DNA of 64,000 nucleotides from positions 148,430,001 through 148,494,000 of the forward strand of contig CM059431.1 of the NCBI GenBank assembly GCA_030390025.1. Direction: 5' to 3'. This document shows, one piece after another, positions 8,086 through 58,860 of this stretch (position 1 is its first letter; every line of letters starts with the position of its first letter). The notes under the pieces are model-generated. The model was not told the origin of the DNA. It saw only the letters and a list, made by a program, of their open reading frames with translations, and ran no database searches. Source of the DNA: Squalus acanthias (lineage: Eukaryota). The translations under genes were made by a program, and so were the position numbers.

Positions 8086-8987
8086 TGAACTTAGTGACGA
8101 TTGTGATCCTGTCCCAGGGAAAGTGCGGTCTCTCCAAATGTGTCACTCGGTACCTGGTGGCCATGGCAGCGGCGGATCTACTGGTCGTTATCCTCGACCT
8201 GATACTGAGGCAGATTCCGATTGCTTATATGGAACAGTTTATTTTCTTGCAGTCATTCCCCGTGTGTAATATCCACGCCGTTCTGCTTTATGCAGCCACG
8301 GACTGCTCTGTCTGGTTCACCGTCTCTTTCACCTTTGATCGATTTGTGGCCATCTGTCGCCAGAAGCTGAAAACTAATTATTGCACCGAGAAATCGGCGG
8401 CTGTGGTTCTGGGAACAGTGACTGTGCTGAGCGGGTTAAAGAACATTTTCTGGTATTTTATGTTCAAAGATCGTTATATGCTTATGAACTTCCCCTGGTT
8501 TTGTGATGTAACAATACCTGTTCTGTTTTCACGGATCTGGGGAGCAATCGAGTTCCTTCATTATATTCTCAACCCGGGGGTCCCGTTTGTTGTGATTCTG
8601 CTCCTCAATGTTGTCACCGTCAGACACATTTTAGTGTCCAGCAGAGCCCGCAGGAGACTCCGGGGTCCCAGCAGTGGGGAGAGTCCCAGAGACCCAGAGA
8701 TGGAGAGCCGCAGGAAATCCATAATTTTACTGCTTGTTATCTCCGGCAATTTCATCCTGTTATGGGCAGCGTTTATGGTGTTTGCTCTTTGGAACCGCAT
8801 GCTTTTTGTGGGGTTTCGTAACATGGATCCACCTCTTTATTTACAGGAATTGGGATTGATGTTGCAGATGCTGAGTTGCTGCACAAATACTGGGATTTAT
8901 GCCTTGACCCAGACTAAGTTCAGAGAGCAGTTGAAGAACGTTGGGAAATATCTCTTCGCTCTGATTGTAAAATTCATTAAAGAATGA
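8086..8987 (+). CDS. Exon 2 (second half of TM1 to C-terminus) of a GPR139-like class A GPCR, intact
   Basis: Polypyrimidine tract then cacag|TG AAC TTA. The 300-codon ORF carries the TM segments and the motifs LVAMAAADL (TM2), TFDRFVAIC (DRY-like) and SCCTNTGIY (NPxxY-like); stop at 8985-8987. Confidence 0.92.
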
Positions 8988-9059
8988 TGAGAAGCGGAGA
9001 CTTTGTAGCCTGGAAGCTCCCAAGGCCACATATTGTGGCGACGCGCTCTCTCACGAACA

Positions 9060-9620
9060 AGCCAGCCCCCGGCGGGAAAATACATGTTACAAAGTTGACA
9101 CCACGGCGCTCCGCACAAATATTACGGCTCCGGCGCAACGCACAAATATAGCGGCTCCGGTACCACGCACAATGAAGGCGGCTCCGGGAGCGCCAAAAAA
9201 AATAGCGGCCCCGGCGCCAAGCACAAATTTGTCGTAACCAGCGCCCCGCAGAAAAATGGCGCCCCCCGGCGAAACGCACAAAGATGGCGGCTCCGTTGCT
9301 CCGCACAACGATAGCGGCCCTTGGCGCTCCGCGCAAAGATGGCGGCTCTGGCGCACCTGACAAAAAAGGCGGTGCTTGCGTACCGCAGAAAGATAGCGGC
9401 TCTGGGAAACTTGCGCAATAATGTCGACTGCGGCGCCCATAAAAAATATGGCGGCTCTGGCGTCCGGCACAAAGATGGTGGCTCTGGTGCTCCTAACAAA
9501 TATGCCGGCTCTGGAGCCCCTAACAAAGATGTCGGCCCCGGCGCCTCGCAGAAATAAATAGTGTCTCTGGTGCCCCGCAAAAAGATGGCGGCTCTGGCGG
9601 CACGCACAACAATCGCGGCT
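9060..9620. repeat. CpG-rich ~27-bp minisatellite containing YY1-type motifs
   Basis: Unit approx. CACAAAGATGGCGGCTCCGGCGCCCCG; perfect AAGATGGCGGC near 9281, 9337 and 9582. Confidence 0.85.
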
Positions 9621-9744
9621 AATTCTATGGTTTTATGATTGATACTACTCACACTTTTACAATTTCCCTATATTTTCAAGAGGTGCTTGATAAAGTTGCA
9701 AATATTACCAACACTGAAGCCCATGGAATTAAATTGGCAGTGGC

Positions 9745-11770
9745 CACAGTGAGTAGTGCGAGGTATATCAGTATTACAGTGAGTAGTGTGGGGTGGAACA
9801 GTCCAGAATGTGACATGTATCAGACGGTTACAGTGAGTGGTGTGGGTACATAAGATTATAAAAGTGAGGGGAGTGGGGTATTACAGTGTGTGTTACAATG
9901 AGTGGCGTGGGGTATATCAGAGTGTTACCGTGAGGGGTGTTGTGTATATCAGTATTACAGTGACTGGTGTGGGGTGTAACTGTCCAGAATGTAGCATTTA
10001 TCAGAGTGTTACAATGAGGGGTGTGGGGTATATCAGACTGTTAGAGTGAGGGGTTTGGGGTATATCAGAGGGTTACCCTGAGGGGTGTGGTGCCTATTTG
10101 ACTGTTAAAGTGAGGAGCGTGGGGTATATCAGAGTGTTACAATGAGGTGTGTGGGGTATATCAGAGAGTGTTAGAGTGAAGGGCGCCGGTATATCAGATT
10201 GATACAGTGAGCATTGTGCGAGAGTTCAGAGTGTTACCATGAGCGGTGTGTGGTATATCAGAGTGTTACAGCGAATGGTGTTGGATATCTCAGAGTATTA
10301 CTGCGTTGTGGGGTATATCAGAGACTTACAGCTAGTGGTGTGGGGTATATCACAGTGGTAAATTGAGGGGTGTGTGGTATATCAGAGTTTTACAGTGAGG
10401 AGTGTGGGGTGCTTCAGAATGTTACAGTGTGGGTTGTGGAGTATATCAGAGTGTGTCACAGTGAGGGTGGTGAAGTGTATCAGAGTGTGTTACAGCGAGT
10501 GGTGTGGGGAGTAACAGCCAGTGTGTGGCATATATCAGAGTGTTAGAGTGAGTGGTGTGGGGTATATCAAAGTGTTATAGTGAGGGGTGTGGGGTATATC
10601 AAATTGTTACAGTGATGTGTCTGGCGAATACGAGTGTGTTACAGTGAGGGGTATGGGTATATAAGTGTGTTACACTGAGAGGTCTGGGTCATAACAGAGT
10701 GTTACTGTGAGGGGTGTGGGTAATATTAGAGTTTTACAGTGAGGGTGGTGTAGTATATAAGAGAGATAGAGTGAGAAGTGTGGGTATATCAGATGTCGGC
10801 AGTGAGTGGTGTGGGTAACATCGGTATTACAGTAATGGGTGTGGTGTATGTAAGAATATTACAGCGAGGGATGTTGGATAAACCAGAGTGGTACAGTCAG
10901 GGAGTGTTGGTTATTTTAATGTTACAGTGAGGGTGTGAGTTATATCAGAACGTTACATTGATGGATGTGAAGTATATCATAGTAAGTTACAGTGTGGGGT
11001 ATATAAGAGTGTTACATTGAGTGGTGTGGGGTGTATTACAGTGTTACAGTGAGGGGTGTGGGATATATCTGAATGTTACAGTGAAGGGTGTGGAACATAT
11101 CAAACTGTCTTGTAGTGATGGAGTGGTGTTTATCAGAGTGTGACAGTGAGGGTGCCGGACTGTATCAGAGTGATGCGAGGCATATCAATACTACAGTTAG
11201 GGGTAAATGGTATATCAAAGGATTACAGTGAGAGGTCTGTGGTATATCATTTTTAGAGTGAGGGGTGTGTGGTATATCAGAGTGCGATAGTGAGTGATGT
11301 GGGGTATATTAGAGCGTTACAGTGAGAGGTTTGGGGTATATCAGAATGTTACAGTGAGGGGTGTGGGGTATATCAGATTGTTACAGTGAGAGGTGTAGGG
11401 TATATCAGAGCTTTACAGTGAGGGGTGTGGGGTATATCAGAGTGTTAAATTTTGGGGTGTGGGTTATATCAGAGTGTTATAGTGATTGTTGTAGCGGATA
11501 TCAGTGTTACAGCAGGAGTTGAGGTCCACAACTGAAATTTATTGTGCAGCGGGGGTCTATCAGGGCGTTGCACTGAGAGGTTTGGGGTATATCAGTGTGT
11601 TACATTAATGGGGTGTGGTATATCAGAGTTTTACAATGAAGAGTGTGGGGAATTGCAGTGTGGTACAGTGAATGTTTAGGGCATATCAAATTGTTACAAT
11701 GAGTGTTGTGGGGTATATTTGAGTGTTACATTGAGGGGTGTGGTGTATATCAGAATACTATACCGAGTGG
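9745..11770. repeat. ~30-bp minisatellite
   Basis: Unit approx. GGGGTATATCAGAGTGTTACAGTGAGGGGTGT, roughly 60 diverged copies. Confidence 0.92.
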
Positions 11771-12040: not shown

Positions 12041-15000
12041 TACTAATACAAATACAGGCACAAATACAAAAAACTGATGGGGCTCCACTAAGCTCCCCCG
12101 GGCTAAACTTCACCAGAATATCAGTGCTAATTTGATCTTGTGAGACGCAACATCATTCATGTCCGAGGCCGGGACACAGAAGCCAGCACGAGCGCAGCAG
12201 CGAGGTCAAGTCACAAGAGTTGCGCAGCGTGGAACAGCAGTGGGGTCGGGGCCCAGGGAAGTTGCGGCAACGGGCCAACAGCGAGTTCGGGAGTACGACA
12301 ATGCATGCTACGAAATCCAGGCAGAGAGGACCTGTGGGAAGCAGGGAGGAGGATTGTAGGAGTATGTTTGTGTGTGTGTGCTTGGCCGATGGTGCAGAGC
12401 ATTGTCTGCAATCGTCTTGTATCCCCTTGCCATTGGTCCAAGACATTGCTCTGTTAAGCTCGTGTGGTAGCTGGTGTGCAACGGCCAGCCCACGTTCAAA
12501 GAATTCACGCGCAGGCACTTCCATCCTTTAAAATGAAGTTCAGGACCTGGAACTTAAGGACCCTCATGGACAACACGGGGAGCTCAGAAGTTTCGACAAT
12601 GACATCGTCGCACTAAGTGAGACCCGGCGGGCAGGGGAAGGCCAGCTCAAGGAGCAAGGCGTTGGCTACACCTTCTTCTTGAAAGACAAACCTGAAGACG
12701 GATGCCACCACCATGGGATAGGCTTCACCATAAAAAATGAACGAGCTGGGCTTGTCAGAGACACCCCTTGCGGTATTAATGAGTGCCTCATGTCTCTTCA
12801 GCTCAACCTAGCCCGGAACCAGTGCGCTCCGGACATCAGTGCTTGCGCCACAACACTGGAAGCCACAGACGAGCCAAAGAGGAATTCTGCTCCAGCCTGA
12901 AAAAATCCCTGTCCCGAGTCCCAACAGGCGAAAAGCAAATCCTCCTTGGCGACTTTAACGCCAGAGTTGGAAAGGACATCGTCCTCTCGGGAGGTGTGAT
13001 CAGCAGAGAGCGGGTAGGGAATGCCTCCTCCTGAAAAAATGATTAGAACATGGCTTTGTCATAACCAACAACTTGTTCCCTCAGAGAGAATAGTGCAAAG
13101 CTTCATGGCAGCAACCTCGCTCCAAGCATTGGCATCTGCTGGACTACGTCAACGTCCGAGCGAGCGACTGCAAGTATGTCCGCATCACCTGCGCCATGAT
13201 AGGAACTCAAGCTTGCTGGACAGACCACCACCTAATCCGCTCTGTCAACTCCAACAACGTAGAGCCAAAACAACGGCTGCAACAGAAGCAATGCCATAGG
13301 AAAATCAAATCTGGAGCACTCTAAGACCCCGCTAAGAGATCCTTATTCTGACTGTGCCTCACAAACAATCTGATGACTCCCAGTGATGCAGAGACAAAGA
13401 GTGTCCACAGCGCCTGGGCTGCACTCAAGGCCTCCATAATCAACACCTGTTAAGAGACTCTACTCGCTCGACCAGTAAACACAAAGACTGTTAGGACGAG
13501 GACGAACAGGAGATCCAGGAGCTGATAAGCTGCAAGTGCAAGGCATTCGTGAACTGGAAGCAGCAGCACAACTCGAGAGCAATAAAGCAGCTCTACAAAC
13601 GTCTGAATGGGGAGGTCCAACAAAAAACTCACGACCTAAAGAACAAATGGTGGGTGGAGAAAGCGCAGGAGATCCAGCAGCTAGCCGACAACCACGACAT
13701 GCGTGGATTTAAGCGCAGTCAAGAGCACCGACGGCCCAAGTACCCAAGGTCCTACCCCACTGCGGGCCAAGAACGGAGAGATACTCATCAAGGACAGAGA
13801 CGCAGTCAGTTTGTCAATGGAAGAAGCACTAAGAAGATCTTCTTAACCGAGATTCTGTCTTTGACGTGAGTGCCCTCAAATCCATCCCGCAGCATGCTAC
13901 CCGCCACCATCTCAGCACAACCGCATGAGATAGAACAGGCCATCCAACAACTGAAGAATAACAAGGCCTCAGGAGCAGATGGAATCCTCGTAGAGGTGCT
14001 AAAACATGTCTGAGAAGCACTATTGGCACGAATACGTGAACTCATTTCTCTTATTTGGAAGGAGGAGAGCATGCCAGGGGATCTCAGAGAAGCGGTAATC
14101 GTGACCATCTTCAAGAAAGCTGACAAGTACTATTGTGGTAATTACAGAGTTGTCTCCCTGATGTCTGCCACAAGTAAAGTCATCGCAAGAATCCTCCTCA
14201 ATCGCCTTCTCCCAGTGACTGAAGAGATCCACCCAGAGTCGCAATGCGGATTACGCACACTAAGGGGCAGAATGGACATGATCTTCACCGTGAGTCAACT
14301 ACAAGAGAAATGCAGGGAACAGAACCAACCCCTGTGCATGGCCTTCTTTGACCTCAAAAACGCCTTTGATATCGTCAACCGTGATGGATTATTGACAGTC
14401 CTCCTCACATTCGGCTGCCCTCAAATATTTATCACCAACCTCCGCCTGCTCCACGACGACATGCAAGCTGTGATCCTGAACAACGGATCCACCACAAACC
14501 AGATTCGAGTACGGCCCGGGGTCAAGCAAGGCTGTGCAACCAAACCAACGCTCTTCTAGATCTTCTTTGCTGCAATGCTCCATCTCAACCTCAGTAAAAT
14601 TCCCGCTGGAGTGGAGCTAATCTGCAGAACAAACGGAACACTGTTCAACCTCTGTCGTCTCCAGTCTGGATCCAAGGACGTCCCATCCACTTTAATTAAA
14701 TTACAGTATGCTGAGGCCGAAATCCAAACCAAAGTCAACACCTTAACCGAAGCATACGGGAGCATGGGCCTTACACTAATCATCCCTCAGACAAAGGTCC
14801 TCCTCCAACCTACCCCCGCCACACAGTACTGCTCCCTGAATATCAAAATTCATGACGTGGCCTTCGACAACCTGGACCACTTTCCATACCTCGGGACCCT
14901 ACTGTTAACAAGAACAGACGTCGATGAGGAAGTCCAACACCGACTTCCGTGTGCCAGTGCAGCCTTCGGTCGCCTGAGGAAAAGAGTGTTTGAAGACCAG

Positions 15001-15580
15001 GACCTCAAACCCGGCACTAAGGTCATGGTTTACAGAACCTGTCCTGTATGCTTCAGAGACATGGACCATGTACAGTAGGCACTTTAAATCATGGAGAGGT
15101 ACCACCAACGCTGCCTCTGCGTTGGCAGGATAGGAGCACCAGCGACAGTACTCTCGCTCAGGCTCCGATGGACGGGTCAGATCGTCCGCATGCTCGATAC
15201 GAGATTCCCAAATCTTGCGCTCTACTCGGAGCTCCGACATGGCAAAGAGTCCCAGGTGGGCAGAGGACACCCTTCAAGGAGACCCTCAAAGCCTCCATGA
15301 AAAAATGGAACATCCCCACCGACAGATGGGAATCCCTGGCCCAAGACCGCACAGAATGCAGGAGAAACATCCGGGAAGGCAGGAGCAAGCGGAAGCCAAG
15401 CGCACCCAGTAAAATGAGCGCACCTCAATCCAAGCACCCCAACCACCCGCCCCTTCAAGCACCGTCTGCCCAACCTGTGACAGAAACTGTAGGTTCCGCA
15501 TTGGACTCATCAGTCACCTGATAACTCATTTTTTAGTGTGGAAGCAAGTCAAACTCGATTTCGAGGGTCTACCTAAGAGA
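12041..15580 (+). mobile_element. RTE-clade (BovB-like) LINE, near full length, decayed
   Basis: ORF starts MKFRTWNLRTLMD at 12533; APE endonuclease motifs (ALSETR, LLGDFNARVG); RT motifs (PESQCG, AFFDLKNAFD, GVKQGC); C-terminal CPTCDRNCRFRIGLISHL; many stops and frameshifts. Confidence 0.92.
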
Positions 15581-15694
15581 TAATAGAGTCTAGCATTTTC
15601 CCTACTGCTGATAAAAGGCTAACTGATCTGTAGTTCCACGTTTTCTCTCTCCCTACTTTCTTAAATAGTGGGGTTACATTTCCTCACTCTCTCT

Positions 15695-25139: not shown

Positions 25140-25311
25140 AGCTGTTTGTTCAGTGACTGTAATTAATGTCAGTCGCCATGGACCATAAATGCATCTATGC
25201 AGGGATTCACTCTTTTATTAATAAGGGACTCCTTTCAATGTATTATCCCATAGTGTCAGTGAGAGCATCTCCTCCGGCACTAACATTGATCAGTGAGCTG
25301 CTCATCAGAGA
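25140..25311 (+). promoter_or_regulatory. Putative promoter/5' UTR of an orphan GPR139-like exon 1
   Basis: GTTCAGTGACTGTAATTAATGTCAGT...AGGGATTCAC...TTAATAAGGGACTCC aligns with 5240-5330 and 55150-55240. Confidence 0.5.
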
Positions 25312-25576
25312 GTGAGTCAGAATCTGAGAACAGCAGATTAGAATGTTACCACATTCGGTTGGAACCTAAGAACAGTGGATTGGAATGTTACAACAATGGA
25401 TCAGAATCTGAGCTCAGTAGATTGGAACGTTACAACAATGGGAAAGGGTTTCTCCTAGGCGTTTGACATGTTTTCTGAATATTATGATTATCTATCATTA
25501 GCAAATAAGATCTATTACGCACTTCTGATTCTGCAATGCATTTAATTTCCCCTCCTTGCTGCTGTTGGTGTTTCTG
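25312..25576 (+). pseudogene. GPR139-like exon 1, pseudogenised (in-frame stops; no private exon 2 found)
   Basis: From ATG 25396: MDQNLSSVDWNVTTMGKGFS*AFDMFSEYYDYLSLANKIYYALLILQCI*FPLLAAVGVS G|gtaagt (phase 1). Four in-frame 7-codon repeats precede it from GTG 25312. Confidence 0.85.
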
Positions 25577-25850
25577 GTAAGTCTCTCTATCCAGTTATCA
25601 ATTCTATAAAACGTGATTAACTGCACTGCAGTTCTTGCCTTTTACATGCCCTTCCTTGTTGCGGTTGATGTTCCTGGTAAGTCTCTGTATACAGCTATTA
25701 AATCTGTAAACCTTTGCATACTGTATTACTATTCTCGGAAGTTACTCTCTCATCTGTGCTGCTGTTGGTCTTCCTGTTAAGTCTCTACATACAGCAATTA
25801 GATCTGTACACCACGTCTCACTGTATTACTGTGCTTATCATTTAAATCTT
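25548..25850 (+). repeat. 100-bp tandem repeat of the exon-1/intron junction (3 copies)
   Basis: GCTGTTGGTGTTCCTG|GTAAGTCTCT...; donor positions at 25577, 25677 and 25777 (the last mutated to TTAAG). Confidence 0.85.
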
Positions 25851-34555: not shown

Positions 34556-37500
34556 GAGTGCGGTTTGCACAGAGTGCTGTGAGTTGGGTGAGTCAGGGAG
34601 GAGGAGACAGAAGAGAGAGCAACGAAGGACAGAGTGGAGACCCTTTCCACCTCCACCACGCCTGCTGCTACAAGCTACAACTACAGCAACTTCTGCTGCT
34701 GATGTGCCAGAGGGGAGAGAGGAGAGGAGAGAGGAAAGGAGACCAATAACAACAACAGAGGGAGGCCATTCCATCACTGCCTCCCCAACTGGTCTCCATT
34801 ACGAGAGAGGGAGAGAGGAGAAACAAAACCTAATCCTGCTTGGAAGGAGGGAGAGCGAGCCATCGATGAGAATAACATCTAGAGGTGGGTGTTAAAAAGG
34901 GCACTCTCCAAAATACTTTGTATTTGAGGTGGGGGGGAGGAAATAAGAAGGAGAAGACCGGGATAACAAGGGGTGTGTGTTGCTGTGTGTGGCTCTTTCT
35001 AATATCTGGAAAACAAATAAAGCTGGAGCTGCCCAGGCAAAGTCATCAATCTATTTCCCCATCTACAACATCGTTAAGACGTGGTGGTTGACTGAGCCTG
35101 GGTATCTCCAGCTTTATTTGTTTTCCAGGTGAAGACATCTTCACCCCCCACCAGAAGATCATCAACAAAGACTATAATTAATATCGGAGAGTGCCCCCCT
35201 TGGAAGCACCCACCCACCCACTATCCTGAGTGGCGAACAGGCCCCTTCGGCCTCCCACCGTCCTTCCCCCTCTCTCTCTCTCTCTCTCTGCCTCTCTCTG
35301 CCTCTCTCTCTCTAACGAGGCACATCTAATTTTATTAATTACCCAATTGAGCAGAGGGGAGAAGGCCCCTCTCCCAATTCCAATCATCAAAGGGAGAGGT
35401 GTGCCTTCATTTTTAAAACAACTCCCTCTGCTCGGGGATGAGTAAAAAAAAACAAGGCCATTTCAAACATCACCCGGCCTGCAACTTGGGGTGAGTGTAG
35501 CCCTTTTACAACACCTTATGATGGCGAGCACATCTTCGCCGGCGACGAGGCCCGCAAGGTCGTACGTGGGTGTGGCAGCCACGGCCACAGCTGGTCCCGC
35601 TGCTTCTGCTGCCCCGTCGCATTTCAGGCTATTGACCAAAAAGCTGGGGGTGAAGAGCTACACTCACCCCAACATGACCATAGAGGCTTGCGTCAAAGCC
35701 ATGGCTGGGATAGTCAGCCCCTCAGCCATCGTAGCGGCCTCTAAAATGTACAGAAAGGCTGTGTTCTTCCTGGGGTCGGAGCGGGCGGTGGCCCTGGCCA
35801 TCACAAAGGGGCTTACCGTGGGCGGGACCTTCCTGCCGGTGGATCCGCTCGAGGCCAACGCGCAGCGAATCGTACAATCAAACGTCCCGCCCTTTGTTCT
35901 GGTTGAGCTCTTCCTTCCCCACCTACGTTAACTGGGGGAGGTGAGGTCGGAGATTAATATGATCCCGCTCGGCTGCAGGGAGGCCAGCCTCCAGCACGTC
36001 TTCTCCTTCCGGCGCCAGCTGTTTATCCAGCTGGTGTGGGAGGAGGACACAGAAGGCACGTTTAGCGTCCAACTCGAGGGGACTGCCTAGCGCGTCTTAT
36101 GTACATCGGACGGTGTGCGGTGCCACGCCTGTAAGGATGTGGGGCACATAAGAAAGAATTGCCACGCCTCCAAGGCCGCCAAAACATCTGAGGCGGCCAA
36201 GGCTGGCGCCGCCAACGCTCCTCCCCCTGTTTCGGTCCGCGCGTCCGCGACACCCGATGCGCGGTGAACGCCGGAGGTCGACGAAGTCGCGGCCTCCGGT
36301 GGAAGCGAGGGGGAGCGTCCGACCGGAAGGATGGCGCGGAGGAAAACTAAACACCTTCAGGCAGGTCCCCCAGATGTACATGATGATTTACCCGAGCTTA
36401 CATCCCCGTACATTGCGCGGGTGGTTGCGGAGTTCGAGAGTGTGAGGGGCCTCGTTCCCGGGCCTGCGGCTGCAACCGCCGAGGCGGCAAAATCGAGACC
36501 TGCGGCCGTGACCGAGCCCAGGCCCTCCCAAGCAAGCTGATCAACAGGGGAGAGCGGAGGAGGAGGTCTCGGTAATCACGGAGTTCTCCCAACCTCCGTG
36601 TTCCTCCACACTGAAAAGGAGGCGAGACGCCCTGCAGGATGAGGAGGACCGTGAGGAACAGGGTCCCCCCTCGCAAGGGGAGTCGTCGCTCGCCGCGGGT
36701 GCTGAGCCCCCCCCCCCCCCCGCCCGTCACCGACACAGACATCCGGCAGGGGTTGCCTGTCCACCGGGAGGGCACGACAGATGAGTCTGTCCAGCCTGTG
36801 CCTCCCGGGGATGGGGAAGAGACCCTGCTAGTGGGGTGGGGGGCCGCGGAATTATCCACTGAGGGACAATATATGGAACCGTTGTTTCTCGCCAGGTCGG
36901 GTGTCCTTCGGACCGGGGTGGGCGAGGCCGATGAGGATGAGCCCGCTGTATACGGTCAGGACTACTCCCAGGTGCTGCTCGACCTGGTGGAGCAAATAAA
37001 TCAAGATCCCCAGTCCGCTGGGTCAGTGGATGGTGGCGGTGAAGGGGAAGGCCCCCTGACTCCGTCTCCGACGCTGGCGCCGGGGGTGTTGGAGGTACTG
37101 GCATTAATGTACTACGCGGTTTCCCCATGCACCCCGGTGCTGGGGGTGGACGGGGGTCCTGAGCCGCCGCTGCTTCCTGACCCGGTGCCTCAGGGGTTGG
37201 GATAGGGGTAGAGGTAGGGCCAGCTGATGGTGACCCCCTGGAGGAGGACGCGGACCCGACGGAGGAAACTGAGGATGACATGGAATCCGTTGCCAACGAG
37301 GCGGCGGACACCCTCGTGCCCCCCTCCGGGACCCCCCTCTTCCCCATTGTGGAACTCCGGGACTTTGTGACCATGGGCCGGGGTCGCCAGGATATAATCC
37401 GGCTGGCCATTGATAAATGGTCGGATCTGGCGCTGCTCGTTTGCTCCGTCCGTGCCGCCGTCAAAACCATGGGCCCGGCCGAGCGACGTCGGATCCGGAA

Positions 37501-40500
37501 GTTCCTCGCTGGGATTAGAAGGGAGTGGCGGTCGAATACCGGCCGCGCTCCCTCCTCCCGTTAGAGTAAAGTAGAGGTTTCAGTATGCTCTTGTCATGAA
37601 GATAACATCAACGGCAGCAGAGAGGCACGCTGTAGATTTAATAACTTCTCATCACTTCAGGAAGTGAGGCATGCGGTGTGCTTCCTGCTGGAAACTCACA
37701 CCGTTCCGGAAGACGAGGCCACGTGGATCCTGGAGAGGCGAGGAGGGGTCAGCATGAGTCACCTCTCCAACATTTCCGGCCGGGTGGCTATCTTGCTGGC
37801 CCCGCATTTTCAGCAAGAGATCTTGGGAGTCAAGGAGCATGTGCCAGTCCGCTTGCTCCAGGTCACTGTTCGCCTGGGAGCGTACCGCTCCATTTAGTGA
37901 ATGTGTACGCCCCCCAGGCCGGCGTGCAGCAAGTGCGCTTCTTCGAAGCAGTGTCCGCTCTTCTGGGCACCATCGACGTCGGCGAGTGCGTCATCCTCGG
38001 GGCGATTTTAATTGTACCCTCGAGGCGAGGGACCATTCGGGTCCTCCGCGAAGCCTGGAGGCAATGGTTAAGTTGAGGGACCTGGTCGGGTCCTTCGACT
38101 TGTTGGACGTCTGGCGAAATCTCCATCCCGACTCCAGCGCCTTCACTTGGGTGGGGTCTGGAGGTGGAAGGTCCAGAATCGGCCGCCTTTATATTTCCCT
38201 GGCGTACATCTCCTGTATTCGGGCCGCTTCCATGAGGCCGGTGCCATGCACGGACCACCACATGGTATGGGCGGAGCTCGCTCCGTTGCGGGCACCGGGG
38301 GTTCCGCATACTGGCATTTTACAAACTGCTGCTGGAGGACGTGCGGTTCCAGGATTCGTTTCGCCGGTTCCGGGCCGACTGGTGAAGGAAGCAGGGGGGC
38401 TTCAACTCCTTGAGGCTATGCTGGGACGTGGGCAAGGCTCCCGTCCGTCTCTTCTGTCAAGAGTATGAGAGGGAGTCGTCCAAGAGGCGGTAGGCCCGGG
38501 TCGGGAGGTTGGAGAGGGAGGTGCTCGACCCGGAGTCCCGTCTCGGGCAAGTCGTCGAAGACCCGGCCCTGCGGAAGGTGTACGAAGAGAAGAAGGGCGC
38601 GCTGAAGGACCTGCAGCTCGTCGGGTCCCGAGGCGCATACGTGAGGTCGCGGATCCAGTTCCTCCGGGAACTGGACCGTGGCTCCCCCTTCTTCTACTCT
38701 CTGGAAAAAAGACTGGGGTCTGTAAGCAGCTCTTGGGGCTGCTGGCCGACGACAGATCTCTGGTCTCGGATCCAGAGGGGATCAGCGCGGAGACCCGGGC
38801 CTATTACGGGTTTCTTTTCTCTCCGGATCAGTCCAGCGAGGCTGCGCGCAGAGTTTTGTGGGAGGGTCTGCCGAGGGTCGGCCCGGAGGGCGTCGAAGAA
38901 TTGGACGCTCCGCTAAGCATGGCGGAGCTGACCGGCGCCCTCGGCCAGCTCTCGAGGGGAAAGTCCCCAGGGCTGGACGGGCAGACCGTTGAGATCCACA
39001 GGGCATTCTGGGAGATCTTGGGGGGCGACTATGCGCAGGTCCTGGGGGAACGTCTGGCGACCGGGGAGATGCCCCTCTCTTGGCGCAGGGCAGTCATCTT
39101 CCTGCTGCCCAAGAGGGGTGATCTCCGCCTTTTAAAAAACTGGCGCCCGTTCTCCCTCCTCAGCACGGACTATAAAATTTTTGCCAGGGCCATGTCTGCC
39201 CGACTCGGAAAAGTGCTGGCCCACACGTTCCACCCCGACCAGTCCTACACGGTCCCGGGCTGGACAATCCACGACAACATCCATCTGGTCCGGGACCTGG
39301 TCCACATTTCCCAGAGGGCTGGTCTGTCGGTCGCCTTCCTTTCCCTGGATCAGGAGAAGGCTTTCGACAGCGTGGATCATGAGTATCTGTTCGGAGCTCT
39401 GTTGGATTCAGGTTCGGGACGCATTTCGTTGCCCGGATCCGACTTATGTATGCCGCGGCGGAGTGTCTGATTAAAGTTAATGATTCTTTGTGGTCGCCCC
39501 TTCGCTTTGGGAGGGCGGTACGTCAGGGATGCCCCATGTCCGGCCAGTAATATGCCGTTTGCGTGGAGCCTATCCTGCGCCTCTTGGGGAAGAGGTTGAC
39601 GGGACTGGCTCTGCAAGTGCCGGGCGTGGAGGGCGTCCTCTCGGCTTACACCGATGACGTGCTCCTCATGGTCACGGATCCCATCGACTTGCGGAGGATG
39701 CGAGAATGCCAGCAGATTTACTCGGACGCATCCTCCGCCAGGATCAACTGGGAGAAATGTTCTGTACTCCTGGTGGGCCAGTGGCGGGTGGACACCCTGC
39801 CGGAGGAGTTCAGGCCCTTTGCCTGAAGCACAACGCACCTCCTCTACTTGGGAGTCTACCTCGGCCCGGCCAAGGACACCTGGTCGGCGAACTGGCAAGA
39901 GCTGGAGGCCAAAGTCACCGCTCGCCTAGGACGCTGGACGGGGTTGCTCCGAGTGTTGTCCTACAGGGGTCGAGCGCTGGTCATAAACCAGATGGTGGCC
40001 GCCATGTTGTGGTACCGGTTGGTCACTTTGATCCCGTCCCCTGCGTTTGTCGCCAAGATACAGAAGATGTTCATCGACTTCTTCGAGGACAAAAGGAAGC
40101 ACTGGGTCTCTGCCGCGGTTTTATTTCTCTCGCTTAGGGAGGGCGCTCAGGTGCTGGTGTGCCTTTGCACCCAGGCGGCGACATTCCGTCTTCAGATGCT
40201 GCAGAGGTACCTTTACGTCGAGAATCCTCCCAGATGGTGTGTGCTGGTGACGTATTTCTTCTGCCAGATGCACGGCCTCAACTATGACACGCAGCTCCTG
40301 TTTGTGGAATTGGACCTCACGCAAGCCTATCTGTGGGAGCTGCCTGTCTTCTACCAGGAACTGCTATAGGTCTGGAACCAGGTCGCCTCCAGGCGGAGTT
40401 CTCCCCCATCAGGAGTGGTGGCTCTCCTTCAGGAGCCGCTGCTCAGAAATCCGCACCTCCACGTCCGACGTATCGGGTGGCTGGCGGAGGGCAGGGCTGT

Positions 40501-41571
40501 GCCTGGTAAGGTGACCAGATTCGGGGACCTGCTCGATGGCGGAGCAGCGGGCTGGATGGCGCCAGAGCAGTTGGTGCGGCGCCTCTCCTGGGGCGACGTC
40601 TGGCGCGCGACCAAAGCCATCGAGTCGCTGAAAGTGGCACTGGGCCCGGACTCCACTATGTGTATCGAGGAGGCTCAAGCACGTGGGGCGATCCCGTCTG
40701 AACTGACCTCCGTTCGGACGGAATTTCTCATCGGCGCGCAGCCCTGAAACCCCTCTCGGGAACCGGCGCCTCACAACTTGAGCCCTCTCGGGGAAATGCC
40801 CTCCGTGCCCTTCAGTTCTGCATGGAGGGGTTTCCTGTACGAGCTGCTCCTGCACACTTTCCACTTTGTCATCTTCGCCTGCCGTTTGGACACGCCTTGG
40901 CGTGCCATCTTGCCTTCTGGCGGAGGCGAAGGTCCCCAGTAATGGCTCTCTACGCGGGGGTCCTCCCCTTTTCAATTGGGGACTTGGCCTGGAGGGTGTG
41001 CACGGAGCAGTCCCGTGCAGTCAGTTTTTAAGTAGGTTCACGGACTCCCAGGCCACCTGTCTTTTTTGCGGCCTCGAGGAGTCCGTGTCCCACGTGTACG
41101 AACAAGGAGAGAGGTTGCAGCCCCTCTTTGAATATTTGAAGGGCCTGCTCCTCGCTTTTTGGTTGCAGTTCAGTCCCACACTCTGATCTACGGTCACCCG
41201 GTGCGGAGGGGAGAGGGCAGTTCGGAGGACCTCCTCGTAGGACTGCTCCTGGGCCTGGCCAAAGTGGCCATTAACAGGTCCAGGCAGCGTGCGGTCGAGG
41301 GGGTCGTTCGGCCCAATTGCCTGCCTCTCTTCCACGGCTATGTTCGCGCCCGGGTGGCCCTGGAGATGGAGCACGCGGTGTCCGCCGGCACACTTGAAGC
41401 CTTCCGAGACCGGTGGGCACCGCAGGGACTGGAGTGCATCGTCTCCCCGGACAATGTTATTTTAGTTTAATGAGATAAGTTTCATTTGAAGTTTTGTTAA
41501 TTTACAGTCGTTTTATGTTGACTCAAAAAGAGTACAAGTCCTACAATTAAGAGCAGCTGAAGGCAGTTAAT
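34556..41571 (+). mobile_element. Full-length Tx1-like (L1-clade) LINE, GC-rich, decayed
   Basis: ~960-bp 5' UTR; ORF1 (35518-~37563) with CCHC knuckle CHACKDVGHIRKNC; ORF2 (37596-41470) with APE (LLETH, NVYAP, GDFN), RT (KSPGLDG, KNWRP, LDQEKAFD, AYTDD) and C-terminal CxxC zinc motif; multiple stops and frameshifts. Confidence 0.92.
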
Positions 41572-50292: not shown

Positions 50293-50925
50293 TAATAGTA
50301 ACTTGCAAAAGGTAATTCGATAAATACTTGAAAAGGAGCAATTTTCAGGACTATGTGGAAACATAATAATTGTTCACTGCCATTCACGAAAGGATATGAC
50401 AGCATTGAAGTAATCTGATCGGTTGTTTGTGGGATCGCTTGACACTGTTTAATTTCATCCCACTGAACACGATGGCAGTGCCACAGGATACGATGGATGC
50501 TGTCCTCAGTGTGAAGGCGAGACTCCTTCTCCACAAATATTGTGCAGTTGTCAGTCCTACCAATATCGTCATGGACAGATGTATATCCGATAGGCAGATT
50601 GGTGAGGACGAGGTCACACAGGCTATTTTCTCATGTTGCTTCTCCCACCACCTTCTGCAATCCCAGTCTTGCAGCTCTTCTTCAGTGCTCTGTTAATGCT
50701 GGTGCTTCTGAGTCACTCTTGGTGATGGTCATTGAAGTCTCCCCTCCCCACCCAGAGACTATATTTTGTGCACTTTTTGCTCTCGGCGCTCCAACCAACT
50801 GGTGTTCTGCATGAAGATGTGCTAATTCCTCAGCAGAATCAGGGTGGTCGTTGATAATCAGCAGGAAGTTACCTTGCCCATATCTGACTGGAAGACATGA
50901 GACTTCATTGTGTCCTTAGGCAATG

Positions 50926-53900
50926 GACAACCCCAACATCGATTGACCGGAACGCCATAGTGCTATCGTTGCCCGGGAGCTCAGACGTTTCGATGTAGAC
51001 ATCGCCGCCCTAAGTGACACCCGACGGGCAGGGGAAGGTCAGCTCAAGTTGCAAGGCGGTGGTTACACCTTCTTCTGGAATGGCAAAGCTGAAGAGGAAC
51101 GCTACCTCCATGGGGTAGGCTTCGCCATATAAAATGAGCTAGTTGGGCGTCTGAGACTCCCCTTGTGGAATAAAGGAACGCCTCATAATTCTACCACTCA
51201 CCCTAGCCAGGAACCAATGCGCCAAGGTCATCAGTGCGTGCGCCTCAACACTGGAAGCAACAGACGATGCCAAAGAGGAATTCTACTCCAGCCTCGAATA
51301 ATCACTGTCCCGATTCTCAACGGCCCACAAGCTAATCCTCCTTGACGGCTTTAACGCTAGAGTTGGAAAGGACAGAATTCTGGCGAGCTGTGATCGGCAG
51401 AGAGGGGGTAGGTGAACCCAACTACAACAGTAACCTCCTCGTTACGAAATGCTTAGAAAATGGATTTGTCATAACCAACATCTTGTTAAATCGGCTTTAC
51501 AAATACAAGAATTCATGGCAACACCCTCGCTCCAAGCACTGGCATCTGCTGAACTACGTCATGGTCTGAGCGAGGGGCAGCATGGATGTCCGCATAACCC
51601 GCGACATGACAGGAGCTGATGACTGCTAGACAGACCACCGCTAATCCGCTCTGTCATCTCCATTAATGTATCCCCAAAACAGCGGCGGCAACAGAGACAA
51701 TGCCGCAGGAAAATCAACGCTGGAGCACTCAAAGACCCCGCTCTCAAAGCTCTATTCAGCCTGTGCTTCACAAACAACCAGCTCTCGGTGTTACAATAAA
51801 CCTGTGCTCTGAATGAAGATGTGCTGATTCATCTGCTGAATCAGGGTGGTAGGTGGTAATCAGCAGGATTTACCTTGCCCATTTCCCACTGGATGAATGA
51901 GAACTCATTATGCGAATATACAAGTGATTCAGAGACACAGAGTGTCCACAGCGCCTGGTCTGCACTCAAGGTCTCCATAATCAGCACCTGTGAAGACACG
52001 CTTGGTCACTCGAACAGGAAACACCAAGACTGGTTCGACGAGAACGGCCAGGAGATCCAGGAGCTAATAAATCGCAAGCGAAAGGCATTCCTCATCTGGA
52101 AACAGCAACACAATTCGAGAGCAAGAAAACAGCTCTATAGACGCCTTAAGGCCGAGGTCCAACAAAAACTCGCGATCTAAAGAACAGATGCTGGGTGGAG
52201 GAAGCGCAGGAGATCCAGCAGCAAGCCGACAACCACAACATGCGTGGATTTTTTAGCGCAGTCAAGACCACCTACGGCTCAAAAACAATAGGTCCTACGC
52301 CACTGCGGACCAAGAACAGAGAGGTAATCATCAAGGAAAGAGAGGCAGCCAGTGCCCGCTGAAAGAAGCACTTCGGAGATCTCCTTTACCGAGACTCTGT
52401 CTTCGACGTGACTGTCCACAATTCCATCCCGCAGCATGCTACCTGCCACCACCTCAGCACAAACCCAGCCCGGCATGACTTTGAAAAGGCCACCTGTCAA
52501 CTGAAGAACAACACGGCCTCAGGAACAGATGGAATCCCCGCCACGGCGCTAAAACATGGCGGAGAAGCAATATTGGCGCGAATACATGAATTCATTTAAT
52601 TTATTTGGAAGGAAGAGAGCATTCCAGGCGATCTCAGAGATGCCATAATCGTTACCATCTTGAAAAAAGGTGACAAGTCCGATTGCGGTAATTAGAGAGG
52701 AGTCCCCCTGCTGTCTGCCACAGGGAAATTCATCGCAATAATCCTCATCAATTGCCTTCTCCCAGTGGCTGAAGAGCTCCTCCCAGAGTCGCAATGCGGA
52801 TTCTCCCCTCTAAGGGGCACAATGGACATGACCTTCACCGAGCGGCAAATACAAGAGAAATGCAGGGAACAGCACCAACCGCTGTACATGGCCTTCTTTG
52901 ACCTCACAAAGACCTACAACACATTCAACAATGAGGGATTAGGGAGTGTCCTCCTCAAATTCGGCTGCCCTCAAAGGTTTGTCATCATCCTCTACCTGCT
53001 TCATGACGACATGGAAGCTGTGATGCTGACAAACAGATCCCCCATAGACCTAATTCACGTATGGACCTGGGTCAAGCAAGGCTGTGTTATCGCACCAAAG
53101 CTCTTCTCGATCTTCCTGGCTGCAATGCTCCATCTCAGCATCAGTACACTCCCCGCTGGAGTGCAGCTAATCTACCGAAAAAACGGGAAACTGTTCAACC
53201 TCCCTCGCCTCCAGTCCAGATGCAAGGTCGTGCCTTCCTCTGTCATCGAATCACAGTATGCAGACATATGCGCACACTCGGTATTCGAACTCCAAACCAC
53301 CGTCAACACCTTCACCGAAGAGTACAGGAGCATGACCCATAACTAAACATCCATAAGAGAAAGGTCCTCGACAAACCTGCCCCCACCACATAGTACAGCC
53401 CCCCGATTATCAAAATCCACGACCATGCCTTTGACAACGTGAACCACGTTCCATACCTCGGGAGCCTATTGTCAGTGTGCCAGTGCAGCCTTCATTCGCC
53501 TGAGGAATAGAGTGTTTATTGACCAGGACGTCAAACCCGCAACCAAGCTCATGGTCTACAAGGCAGTAGTGATTACTGCCCTCCTGTACGCTTCAGCGAC
53601 ATGGACAATGTACAGTAGACACCTCAAAGCACTGGAGAGCTCCCTCCAACGCTGCTTCCTCAAGATCCTGCAACTCCATTGGCAGGATAGGAGCACAAAC
53701 GTTAGTGTTCTCGGTCAGGCCAACATCAGCAGCATCGATGCTTTGACCACAAAAGATCAGCTCCGATGGACGGGCCACATCGTCCTCAAGCCCGATACGA
53801 GACTCCCAAAACAAGCGCTCTATTCGATGCTCCGACACGGCAGGAGAGCCCTAGGTGGGCAGAGGAAACGCTTCAAGGACACCGTCAAAGTCTGCTTGGA

Positions 53901-54212
53901 AAAGTCCAACTTCCCCTCCGACAATTGTGAATTCCTGGACCAAGACCGCTCAAAGTGGAGGAGAAGCAGCCAGGAGGGCACCAAACACCTTGTGTCTCTT
54001 TGCCAGGAGCAAGTGGAAGCCAAGCACAAACAGTAGAAGGAGCGCACGTCAACCCAAGCACACACCCACCCGTCCCTTCAAACACCGTCTGCCCCACCTG
54101 TGACAGAGACTGTAGGTCCCGCATTGGACTCATCAGTCACCTGAGAACTCATTTTTAATGTGGACGAAAGCCATCCTCGCTCCCGAGGGACTGCCTAAGG
54201 AGAGAAGAACAA
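50926..54212 (+). mobile_element. RTE-clade LINE, 5'-truncated, TSD GCAATG
   Basis: Same family as 12041-15580 (PESQCGF, AFFDLTK, CPTCDRDCRSRIGLISHLRTH); GCAATG at 50920-50925 and 54213-54218. Confidence 0.92.
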
Positions 54213-54604
54213 GCAATGTTGAGGACTCGCGGGATCTCTCCCAGCCGACTGTATACCGCTGTGCCCCCACCTGTGGTGAATCAGTCCTGCCAGTGGAACA
54301 GGATACACCCTGGGATGGTGATGGAGGAGTCGGGAATATGGACTGATACGTTTGCTTCTGTGACTATGATTGTGCGAGAATTCAATGTTTCCAGAGAGTT
54401 TAATGGAGTATTCAGACGGTTACAGGCTATTTATCTCATTGATTAATTTTTTAAGCGTTTTGCTTTGATTCCTTGTTGTCAAACCTTTGCTCGTTTTATT
54501 ATTTTCGCAACCCTCTGTAAAGCACCATTACAAGATTGGCTGTTTGAGTTCAATTATTAGAAAAACCTTGTAGTTCTTGTTCTAGATTTAGGCAAGTAGA
54601 ATGC

Positions 54605-55035
54605 CCTGGGAAGCAACTTGCTGGACTAAGGCGGGAACATGGAACCTTGGCTGCTCTCGGAATTAAATTCGTGGACTGCGGCGGGAGCAATGTTATCTAG
54701 GCGACTCTGGGAATGAAATTCCTGGAATGCGGTGGGAGCAATGTTATCTAGACGGCCGAAGGAATCACCTTTCTGGAGTAAGGCGGGAGCAGTGTAATCT
54801 GGGCAGCACAGGGAATGAAGTTCCTGGACTGAGGCGGAAGCAGAGTTACCTCGGCGGCCCTGCGTTTGAAGTTCCTGGACTGAGGCAGCAACAGTGTTAT
54901 CTAGGCGTCCATGGGAATGAAGTTCCTGTTATCAGACGGGAACAGTGTAATCTTAGCGGCCCAGGGAATTAATTACCACGACTGAAGTGGGAGCAGTGTA
55001 ATCTAGGCGACCCTGGGAAATAAATTCCTGCACAG
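54605..55035. repeat. ~54-bp minisatellite (orthologue of 4745-5135)
   Basis: GGGAATGAAGTTCCTGGACTGAGGCGG...GTAATCTAGGCG units. Confidence 0.85.
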
Positions 55036-55149
55036 AGGAAGAGTGAATTATTGTGCATACACTCACTTTTAATTTAACGCTGTGCACAGTAATGTGAGCT
55101 AGATTGTGTTGTAGTGAAGTGTGGGGGTGACAATGGATCAATGAGTCTG

Positions 55150-55308
55150 TTTGTTCAATGAATGTAATTATTGCCAGTTACAGTGAGGCCTAATAATTTC
55201 ACTCGGGGATTTCCCTCTGCTCTAAGTAAGGAGATCCCTTCACTGTGTGACCTCACACAATCAGCGCGTTGCCTCCAGCACAAAGACCACCAGCCTCTCG
55301 CAGAAGGG
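55150..55308 (+). promoter_or_regulatory. Putative promoter of GPR139-like copy 2
   Basis: GGGGATTTCC at 55205-55214; homologous to 5240-5398. Confidence 0.5.
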
Positions 55309-55377
55309 ATGTCATGGGTTCGATGATCTCTATGGAAAGTATTCTTGACCTGTAGCAGTTAATAAGAACGCTTTGGA

Positions 55378-56170
55378 ATAAGAAAAGAAAATGTTGATTA
55401 CACTCAGCAGGTCAGGCAGCATCCATGGAGAGAGAAAGAGTTAACGTTTCAGGTCTGTGTCACTCCATCAGAACTGAAAAGTTTTAGAGCTGCAACTGAT
55501 TTGTAGCAGGTACAGGGGCAGGGAAATTGGGGCGGGTTGAATGAAAGAACAAAAGTGTCTGTCTGTGATAGGTTGGAATGCAGGAGTGGGTAAATGTTGC
55601 AGATGTGGCTGGGAGAAACATCAACAGCAGCCGCCTGAAACACACAGGGTCGGATGCTATCGTCCGAAATTGCGGAACTCAATGTTGTGTCCATTAGGCT
55701 GTAAAGTGCCTAATAGATAGATAAAGTGCTTTTCCTCGAGCTTAAATTGAGCTTCATTGGAACACTGTAAGACGCCGAGCACAGAGACGTCAGAGTGGGA
55801 TGGGAGCAGCGAAGTAAAGTCACAGGGGACCGGAAGCTCGGGTTCTCACTTACCGACTGAACATATGTGTTCCGCAAAGCAATCACCCAATCTGCGTTTG
55901 GTCTCCCCAGAGTAGAGGACACCGCATCCTGAGCAGCGAATACAGTATACTAAATTGAAGGAAATTCAAGTAAATCGCTGTTTCACCTGGAAGGATTATT
56001 TGGGGCTCTGGACAGTGGGAAGGGAGGAGGTAAAAGTGCAGGTGTTTCATCTCCTGCGCTTGCAAGGGATGGTGCCGTGGGGAGGGGAGGGGCTGTTGGT
56101 GGTGATTGAGGAGTGGACCAGGGTGTTGTGGAGGGTGCGGTTCCTTCGGAATGCTGAAAGGGGAGGGGAG
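55378..56170 (-). mobile_element. Penelope-like element 3' part (GIY-YIG endonuclease remnant and pseudo-LTR) inserted in GPCR exon 1
   Basis: Minus strand: ...FNLVYCIRCSGCGVLYSGETKRRLGDCFAEH, a GIY-YIG-like motif of PLEs; terminal degenerate hammerhead-like motif. Confidence 0.82.
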
Positions 56171-56219
56171 GATATACAAAACATTTACTATCCCCTTCTT
56201 ACTGCTGTTAGTGTTCCTT
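56171..56219 (+). pseudogene. 3' half of GPR139-like exon 1 (copy 2)
   Basis: DIQNIYYPLLTAVSVP T|gtaagt, phase 1. Confidence 0.8.
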
Positions 56220-57969
56220 GTAAGTATCTATGTCCAGTTATTAACTCTATAAACCATGTTACACTGTAATATTATTCTTGCTATTTACCGTGGCATACTG
56301 ATTTATTAGTGTTATTCTGTGTTTCGAGTTCTTGCATCTTTGTTGATGCAAGAGTTATTTAAAAAGACTGGCACATTCTCGCTACTGTTGGTGTTCCTGG
56401 TACGTCTCTCTATCCCGCTATTAATTCTATAAATCATGTTTAACTGTATTTCTCTCCTTGTCATTCTCCATCCCTTGCGCACTGCTGTCGGCTATTGATT
56501 CTGAAGGTGATACGGTATTACCGAATGGCGAAAGGTAATCGACCTGAAACTTTAACTCTCTCTCTCTCCACAGATGCTGCCTGACCTGCTGAGCATTTAA
56601 AACATTTCCTGCTCTATTTTAGATTCCCAGCATCCGCAGTAATTTGCTTTTGTTTTCACCGAATGGTCGATATGGTTACTCACACAGATTCACAGGAACA
56701 AATCCTGACAGATCACAAACTGATCTTTAAATGTCTGAAATATCCGCGAATCATTGAGTTCCAGGAAGTGTCTCGTTTGCTACCATCTCCAGTTCTACAT
56801 TAGTGATACTGCTTCTGATGGTAAGAATAGGTTTATACGGATAATTTAACTTCTCGAAAAACGTTCAGTCAGCCATATTTCAATGCGTTTATTACCAATT
56901 TTGTTTTGAATTTACAAGTGGGTCCCGTGCCTGTCTGTCAAAGTTCAGTGGATCTCTCAGTGAGACCCAGAGTTATTCTCTATCGCCTCCTTCTGTACTG
57001 CAGGATAATCAATCCCAGCTGATTGTAACTGAAGTACTGAGGATAAGAAAATCATTTCATATTTTCTCGACTAATATTCTCTGCACAATTTGGAAACCAA
57101 CAGGTGAAAAATACAATGAAAAATCTCTTCCATTTGTGTTCAGATACTTAACGAAAGCCTAATGAGGCTCGTTGCCTGTGGGATGAGTCGCTTGATTACG
57201 ATGCTAATACATGCATTTAGTGTGATATTACCTGGTCAATGATAACTATTTATTTTAATTCAGAATCCATTCCTTGCAATGTTATTTGAAAAATCTTCCG
57301 TTCAATGAGCCACAATTTCAGTCTTTCAACAAAACTACAGAAAGCTCAATCTTCAAAACATTTCTTACAGCCCAGTTATTTTTATAACTACAGTGCCCTT
57401 GTATTAATTATCTTAGCACTTGCATATTACAGTCGTACATTTTTAAGAGAATTGCCAGCAATTATTGCACGCCAAGATTGCAGTTACTGTATTTTGCCGT
57501 TACATTTATTTTCAGTTCTAAATATAATGGATATTCTAACTAGGAGCAGGAATACAAGCGGGATTTCCCCCTCCCTAACACAGGGGCAGGGAAGCGAATT
57601 GCACCGCTCCAAATGCTGACTGATCCAGGAACACGAAGCCTTCCTCCGAGGTGCTGGTCCTTTGTGTCACTGGTAATTCGGGTGGTGCTTTTGTCTGCTG
57701 GGCCAAAGGTAGATCTACCATTTAATCTCTCATTGATCAAACATCTGTTACTTTCATGTTGTATTTAGTCACGTTTCATTTCTTAATTCCACAATATATT
57801 TCCGATTATTCTTACAATAAAGGCTGTATTCAACTCCACGGGCAATAGAATTAGATTATATAATTGAATGTCGCTGATGAGTTGGAGATTTCTCCCAGAA
57901 TTCCTTCTATCTGTTGCTCTTGCTCCCAGCCTGATGTATAATTTCCCTGTTTATTTCCCTTCCTCACAG

Positions 57970-58860
57970 TGAACTTAGTGACGATTGTGATCCTGTCTCG
58001 GGGAAAGTGCGGTCTCTCCAAATGTGTCACTCGCTACCTGGTGGCCATGGCAGCGGCGGATCTACTGGTCCTTATCCTCGATCTGATATTGAGGCAGATT
58101 CCGATTGTATTTATGGAACATTTTCGTTTCGTGGAGTCCATCCCCGTGTGTAATATCCACGCCGTCCTGCTTTATGCAGCCACAGACTGTTCTGTCTGGT
58201 TCACCGTCAGTTTCACCTTCGATCGATTTGTGGCCATTTGTCGCCAGAAGCTGAAAACTAAATATTGCACCGAGAAATCGGCGGCAGTGGTTCTGGGAAC
58301 AGTGACTGTGCTAAGCGGTTCAAAGAACATTTTCTGGTATTTTATGTTCACACATCTGTATGCGCTTGCGAACCTGCCCTGGTTTTGTGTGGTAACAATG
58401 GATGTTGTTTATTCATGGGTCTGGGGGACAATCGAGCTCCTTCATTATATTCTCACCCCAGGGGTCCCATTTGTCGTGATTCTGCTGCTCAATGCTCTCA
58501 CCGTCAGACACATTTTATTGTCCAGCAGAGCCCGGGGGTCCCAGCAGTAGGGAGAGTCCCAGAGACCCAGAGGTGGAGAGCCGCAGGAAATCCATCATTT
58601 TACTGCTTGTTATCTCCGGCAATTTCATCCTGTTGTGGGCAGTGTTTTTGATGTATTATATATGGATCCGGATGAGGGATTTGGAGGCTATATCTGTTTA
58701 TGCACCTTTTTATGTAAGGGAATTGGGATTGATGTTGCAGATGCTGAGTTGCTGCACAAACACTGGGATTTATGCCGTGACACAGACTAAATTCAGAGAG
58801 CAGTTAAAGAATGTGGGGAAATATCCCTTCACTCTTATTGTAAAATTCATTAAAGGATGA
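57970..58860 (+). pseudogene. Exon 2 of a second GPR139-like GPCR with an 11-bp frameshifting deletion in ICL3
   Basis: cacag|TGAAC acceptor. Relative to copy 1, CAGGAGACTCC is missing at ~58534, giving TAG at 58548-58550; the downstream frame still reads TM6-TM7 to TGA 58858-58860. Confidence 0.9.

Follow-up and report, generated by a model that had tools for sequence, protein, structure and literature searches.

Two damaged copies in Squalus acanthias of a very large, loop-diversified G-protein-coupled receptor family: a putative chemosensory-type repertoire of cartilaginous fishes

The 64,000-nucleotide stretch of the Squalus acanthias genome analyzed here (the window; assembly GCA_030390025.1, contig CM059431.1, positions 148,430,001 to 148,494,000) carries two copies, A and B, of a two-exon G-protein-coupled receptor (GPCR) gene with a phase-1 intron within the first transmembrane helix (TM1). 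We read them as damaged members of a very large receptor family of cartilaginous fishes, which may form a chemosensory-type repertoire. Copy A, on the forward strand, begins with a promoter-like block (5243-5321) composed of a family element (5243-5261), a kappaB-like site, GGGGATTTCCC (5295-5305), and a TATA-like box (5313-5321). Its exon 1 is split by a 678-bp dispersed repeat in antisense orientation (5467-6144, reverse strand); the 5' piece (5404-5466) starts with GTG, the position being ATG in uninserted relatives, and the 3' piece (6145-6193) encodes the start of TM1 and is followed by a GTAAGT donor at 6194. Exon 2 (8086-8987) is an open frame running from the second half of TM1 to the C-terminus of a class A GPCR. 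Copy B, on the same strand, has the same plan, with a promoter-like block at 55153-55231 (the element, a kappaB-like site at 55205-55215 and a TATA-like box at 55223-55231), a 5' piece of exon 1 (55314-55376) that retains the ATG and contains an in-frame stop, the same antisense insertion with a length of 794 bp (55377-56170, reverse strand), and a 3' piece (56171-56219) with its GTAAGT donor at 56220. Its exon 2 (57970-58860) is a pseudogene, with an 11-bp frameshifting deletion in the third intracellular loop (ICL3) after about 58534. In L090, a locus near-identical to copy B, the frame is interrupted at the identical position, which makes a simple assembly error less likely. Judged from the sequence, neither window gene is probably functional and, being damaged, they are poor examples of the repertoire. 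At the exon junction of copy A (6193/8086), splicing would create an in-frame ATG (A + TG) in the middle of TM1, where most subfamilies have GTG; this start would probably come too late for a full TM1.

The insertion in exon 1, with a common junction, was present in 14 copies on contig C7, including A, B, L072, L084, L085, L087-L093, L096 and L097. A piece of the repeat gave 40 scored matches over many contigs among 2,478 candidates, and a Pfam search of the inserted repeat gave no match; we take it to be a Penelope-like GIY-YIG element. Trees of the insertion, the intron and exon 2 recovered the same small groups. Exon 2 was open in 11 of the 14 insertion-bearing copies, compared with 8-24% expected per tip under neutral point mutation at 5-9% divergence (the tips are not independent). 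The ratios of nonsynonymous to synonymous differences (pN/pS) in the constant regions of recent duplicates were low, at 0.013/0.052 for A and L089 and 0.004/0.063 for L096 and L097. Together, the open frames and the low pN/pS indicate that selection continued to act on insertion-bearing copies once the repeat was in place. Cryptic splicing within the repeat was in frame in 6 of the 14 copies and out of frame in 4; it was not found in 2, and in a further 2 the junction was misplaced by the script. As six copies could splice in frame, copy A might still work, and the insertion-bearing copies possibly persist through cryptic splicing, through another first exon or as sequence donors.

The initial annotation of the window had described the two exon-2 copies as near-identical except on the extracellular side, and the peptides it quoted for both were all found where it had placed them. 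The contrast it drew was borne out: 38 of 66 extracellular residues differ between A and B, against 18 of 229 others (with gaps set at the deletion), namely 7/15 in extracellular loop (ECL) 1, 13/26 in ECL2 and 18/25 in outer TM6, ECL3 and outer TM7. With loop limits taken from an AlphaFold model, the counts were 26/46 within loops and 30/249 outside (Fisher p 3e-10). Both disulfide cysteines are retained in the two copies. The statement that there are no indels holds for the extracellular segments and fails for ICL3, where copy B has its deletion; the TM6-7 peptide quoted for copy B lies downstream of it and is out of frame. Both copies look damaged, the frameshift in B and the split exon 1 of both having been overlooked. 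Extracellular dN and dS (nonsynonymous and synonymous divergence) were 0.42 (confidence interval 0.30-0.57) and 0.32, and elsewhere 0.04 and 0.17, and the intron has about 15% mismatches. Since extracellular dN exceeds both the intron mismatches and dS elsewhere, the loops have outpaced neutral divergence, as predicted, although for this pair alone extracellular dN was not significantly greater than dS (bootstrap P(dN>dS) 0.82).

The family to which these copies belong is very large. A degenerate 29-mer motif of TM3 had 2,150 exact matches in the genome and an 18-mer had 890, with none in the control for either, so that the paralogues anticipated for this receptor are far from few. A protein search of the genome gave 4,646 candidates, of which 131 were scored, all with at least 79% identity. 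The matches listed cluster on contigs C1, C3, C6, C7, C17 and C21 and on many smaller ones. Among the first 100 listed of the 890 18-mer loci, exon 2 passed an open-frame filter in 52 (51 without L139), and the TM3 motif was present in 76; exon 2 was open in 18 of the first 30 listed TM3-motif loci. Scaling from these non-random samples, we estimate that there may be about 1,200-1,500 open exon 2s genome-wide. About half of the exon-2 copies in the samples are broken, in agreement with the heavy pseudogene turnover initially suggested. By a rough filter, an open exon 2 together with an exon 1 having both its ATG and its donor was present in 24 of 56 loci on C21 and in only 4 of the 40 unplaced ones; in 22 of these 40, exon 1 was not found within 6.5 kb. 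A protein database search returned 2,164 clusters at E<=0.001, the 120 listed all being from sharks (Heptranchias, Heterodontus, Pristiophorus), and look-ups of 20 representatives named members in skate, stingray, manta, catshark, carpet-shark and chimaera. The large chondrichthyan family that had been envisaged thus has members in sharks, rays and chimaera. Its RefSeq label is 'probable G-protein coupled receptor 139'; the repertoire is real, very large and misnamed GPR139 by automatic annotation. It is apparently undescribed, as no description of a chondrichthyan expansion was found in the literature searched, in which coverage of subscription papers was limited. A survey of tandem clusters in two batoids (Squalomix; bioRxiv 10.1101/2025.06.08.657570) does not contain '139' in its main text.

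Several subfamilies have peculiarities of their own. A young subfamily on C1 (L224-L242, 98.9-99.7 Mb) has neither the ECL2 cysteine nor the C3.25 cysteine, and short blocks of the top of TM3 and of ECL2 are swapped in a patchwork among its near-identical copies, which suggests local shuffling. In two separate sequence sets, a test similar to the pairwise homoplasy index (PHI) was not significant (p 0.16 and p 0.37) and thus gave no demonstration of gene conversion there. In five copies (L172, L173, L174, L181 and L182), the start of exon 1 is ATA and a new in-frame ATG stands immediately before TM1, so that the receptors they encode are predicted to have almost no N-terminus.

The family is of class A (rhodopsin-like). 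The only Pfam match of copy A was PF00001 (7tm_1; E 2e-20), its AlphaFold model (pLDDT 89) showed a helical bundle with ECL2 strands, and among 116 intact sequences D2.50 was found in 116, R3.50 in 115, Y7.53 in 116 and the two cysteines of the disulfide pair in 105 and 104. The best sequence match in the PDB was human GPR139 (7vug, 9m42), with E only 3.7e-9, and a fold search was non-discriminating, its best matches being peptide GPCRs at the generic class A level (TM-score ~0.7). The window protein was absent from the Atlas; with a homologue as query, all clusters obtained there were either named GPR139 or of the generic 7tm_1/Srw kind. Within the genome, the sole two matches at E<=1e-14 were L209, which is the true GPR139, and L223, which is GPR142-like, and there were three singleton orphans besides (L208, L211 and L212). 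A search for nematode-type Srw chemoreceptors (PF10324), considered as a candidate class, gave three exons and L208 and no family member. We take these exons to be galanin-receptor-like; the outgroup of our trees consisted of only three fragments presumed to be of that kind.

In addition to a quick tree of 65 rows, a careful tree of 24 rows was built and used for the topology tests. In the latter, the family formed a clade (98/93) with a salamander orphan as its sister (99/99), and GPR139 and GPR142 stood apart as sisters of each other (100/98). A clade of the family with GPR139 was rejected by the approximately unbiased (AU) test (p 1.3e-6; p 2e-4 with the salamander gene added), and, against the wording of the initial annotation, we place the receptors in an orphan clade of their own rather than among copies of GPR139 or GPR142. 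A wider clade of the family, the salamander gene, GPR139 and GPR142 was not rejected (AU p 0.18, with the outgroup limited to the three fragments). One side of a branch with 95/95 support held the family, the amphibian orphan, fish and coelacanth orphans, L208, L211 and L212. Frogs and a caecilian have relatives of the salamander gene at 66-74% identity, comprising 20 amphibian clusters with one per species, there is one match in sturgeon, and the amphibian gene shares the ICL3 motif DPEM..RR.S with the family. On these sequence comparisons, a conserved orphan of amphibians and sturgeon, rather than GPR139, is probably the family's nearest relative outside it. The singletons L212 (C17), L208 (C9) and L211 (C16) are the shark representatives of little-described, GPR139-like orphan lineages of fishes and coelacanth. 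Low-copy fish and coelacanth orphans near GPR139 have been named GPR210A/B in a study whose available text does not mention 'shark' (PMC6504862), and a table row in another reads 'Orphan 139-like' (PMC5207463). Our tree groups coelacanth, teleost and amphibian orphans, which may correspond to these named genes, with the family. In contrast to the family, these orphans are low-copy, and the available parts of both papers describe no chondrichthyan expansion.

Comparison with GPR139 and GPR142 showed both shared and divergent features. The TM1 position at which exon 2 of the family begins is also where exon 2 begins in the GPR139 and the GPR142-like gene of this genome; in contrast, the family lacks P6.50, has DRF in place of DRY and comprises thousands of copies rather than one. 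The Trp/Phe pocket of GPR139 is formed by F3x33, H5x43, W6x48, R6x51 and N7x38, according to the available part of PMC5430874. With positions mapped from the alignment to GPR139, the 116 intact sequences keep W6x48 in 115 cases and H5x43 in 88, and have F in 23 or Y in 61 at 3x33. Position 6x51 is mostly F, Y, N or T, R not being among the common residues, and N7x38 occurs in 1 of 116. As the polar pair R6x51/N7x38 is missing, the family members are unlikely to sense Trp or Phe.

Site-wise selection was analyzed on 63 of 74 sequences, leaving out nine divergent ones with <66% identity to A, L139 with its shifted tail, one duplicate and all broken copies. Site models with variable dS indicated positive selection, with twice the log-likelihood difference (2dL) at 67.8 (68-69), whereas none of 20 simulations of the variable-dS null exceeded 7.7. 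The signal remained when double substitutions were allowed (2dL 24-48) and with segment-specific trees (2dL 9, 43 and 16). Twelve sites had a posterior >0.9 (exon-2 residues 49, 53, 128, 134, 136, 144, 145, 148, 154, 245, 248 and 251), and 11 of these fall within the 46 loop residues of the AlphaFold model (p 4e-9). Seven selected sites were common to two independent subfamily sets (p 4e-5, from constant-dS lists). The constant regions had a dN/dS of 0.2-0.35. In ECL2, variable residues alternate with invariant ones, and the variable sites include the equivalents of 6x55, 6x58 and 7x31-35. Among 22 representatives at 80% identity, entropy was 1.6-2.4 bits in the outer helix halves and loops, 0.4-0.8 in the inner halves and 1.0 in the intracellular loops with helix 8, and in the comparison of subfamilies the outer halves of TM2, 3, 5, 6 and 7 vary and the inner halves do not. 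The extracellular loops are under diversifying selection and the inner signalling side is fixed, as had been proposed from the two window copies.

A 19-base element with a TAATTA core, about 70 bp before the TATA-like box, is common to the subfamilies. It had 712 exact matches in the genome and 0 in the control, the 100 listed lying mostly within family clusters, and it was found upstream of 86 of 140 loci on the gene strand versus 2 of 140 on the opposite strand. Identity in its core was 0.85, against 0.25-0.37 further upstream (12 loci). A strict kappaB consensus stands directly before the TATA-like box in 20 of the 86 promoters, including those of A and B. The factor names used here (kappaB, TATA-like box, homeodomain) are our own presumption, and the TAATTA core presumably resembles homeodomain sites in the promoters of sensory receptors. 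Arrays of 51-bp tandem repeats (4796-5129 and 54603-55038) lie immediately 5' of the element in both window copies; the upstream arrays of other subfamilies differ.

Considering these results, we give about even chances to the reading that A and B, both damaged, come from a very large family of two-exon GPCRs in cartilaginous fishes that is distinct from GPR139, has diversified loops and serves as a chemosensory-type repertoire. Like the vertebrate chemoreceptors (OR, TAAR, V1R, V2R and T2R), the family is clustered and evolves by birth and death, many of its subfamilies have a short N-terminus, and it combines a variable ligand face with a constant signalling face and a shared promoter. Its size is comparable to the largest sets of olfactory receptors (ORs), which reach 2,399 complete genes in the available part of PMC10869828. 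In contrast to those chemoreceptors, it stems from a different GPCR root and has an intron inside TM1, and the clade of the window varies at the rim and loops, with the deep TM3 pocket fairly fixed. In the mechanism we propose, unequal crossing-over would multiply copies within clusters, and selection would vary the rim of the pocket, that is, ECL1, the ECL2 hairpin and the tops of TM5-7. The ligands may then differ from copy to copy and would probably be peptides or similarly large molecules, not free Trp or Phe, while the conserved DRF, ICL3 and helix 8 would couple all copies to a single G-protein class, and one promoter would drive all copies in one cell type. Three contig-level runs, presumed to be of RNA, cover introns as well as exon 2. 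In one contig, the stretch preceding exon 1 of L204 is linked to the beginning of exon 2 across undetermined letters; it is a weak hint that we do not count as evidence.

Several observations weigh against this reading. Both window copies look dead, and the counts may include uncollapsed haplotypes, since the 116 intact sequences collapse to 106 clusters at 99% identity. The selection model was our own MG94 grid on a fixed tree rather than PAML, applied to the 63 intact sequences. With constant dS, the observed 2dL of 398 compares with 123-249 in null simulations, an inflation by variation in dS, and therefore only the variable-dS figure is to be trusted; this test was not significant for the C21 subfamily alone (21 sequences, 2dL 2.8). 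Averaged by region across the family, extracellular dN/dS was 0.78 versus 0.29 elsewhere, so that the value above 1 expected for the extracellular side applies to a minority of sites and not to the region as a whole. In a catshark sensory study (PMC11979771), no GPCR appears among the 50 most specific brain or olfactory genes and GPR139 is not named in the main text. The kappaB-like site of 20 promoters points toward immunity.

This last observation, together with the strong site-wise selection at the outer rim and the fast turnover, would suit an innate-immune repertoire on granulocytes, mast-like or barrier cells that senses microbial or parasite peptides and is diversified by an arms race. 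FPR and MRGPR receptors follow such a logic, being class A families that have expanded in particular lineages, show selection at ligand-contact sites and serve sensory neurons as well as immune cells; they belong to subfamilies unrelated to the shark family and have one to two orders of magnitude fewer genes. However, when subfamilies are compared, conservation is lower in the kappaB-like slot (0.61) than in the core with TAATTA (0.85), and germline immune GPCR families usually number tens of genes, not thousands. We consider an immune repertoire somewhat unlikely, and on present sequence evidence a chemosensory role is likely to be the better choice of the two.

A repertoire for diversified peptides of the animal itself or of conspecifics, such as cues of reproduction, social life or self-recognition, with receptors co-evolving with their ligands, is distinctly improbable. 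The available part of PMC6380545 gives the MIP peptide receptors of invertebrates as orthologues of the wider GPR139/142 group, the best fold matches were the peptide GPCRs noted above, at a generic level only, and the variability at the 6x55, 6x58 and 7x31-35 equivalents would fit such ligands, but known neuropeptide systems come nowhere near a number of more than 1,000 receptors. An amplification that is largely neutral, taking place in repeat-rich clusters and combined with assembly duplication, merely relaxed loops and mostly silent copies, would explain the many pseudogenes, the near-identical pairs on unplaced contigs, the unplaced loci with no nearby exon 1 and the region-averaged extracellular dN/dS at or below 1. 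This explanation is very improbable, being largely refuted by the low dN/dS of the constant regions and by the sites with omega >1 that survive null simulation; moreover, the 116 sequences form 51 distinct clusters at 90% identity, the promoter core is conserved, and the family is old enough to span sharks, rays and chimaera.

The remainder of the window contains an orphan exon-1 remnant of another subfamily on the forward strand (25148-25578), with the element at 25148-25166, an N-terminal repeat coding region interrupted by stops at 25312-25576 and a donor at 25577; an exon 2 belonging to it was not found within the window. N-terminal repeats of 14 residues, variable in number and each with an N-x-T sequon, occur in some subfamilies (window 25312-25441; P0003, P0008, L099 and L119). 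Degraded non-LTR (long terminal repeat) retrotransposon copies with RVT_1 matches lie in the intergenic DNA (35400-41500, 12500-15600 and 50900-54200), tandem repeats are also present between the window genes, and there is a gap of 500 N at 2430-2929.

More tentatively, and with less confidence than in the chemosensory-type reading as such, we propose that these receptors, with more than 1,000 working genes, would be the seventh chemoreceptor family of vertebrates, having arisen independently out of a lineage of peptide receptors related to GPR139, with sparse expression in sensory cells and one shared promoter element. Cartilaginous fishes are regarded as having the fewest smell receptors of all vertebrates, about 44. 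Their OR repertoires are small, with a mean of 43.8 genes, despite many olfactory neurons, as given in the available part of PMC10869828. A GPCR family under selection, with a diversified ligand face and more than 1,000 open genes hidden under the name 'probable GPR139', would either explain the chemical discrimination of sharks or reveal an unrecognised germline immune sensor system. Furthermore, the single-copy amphibian orthologue would offer a tractable route to the ancestral ligand.

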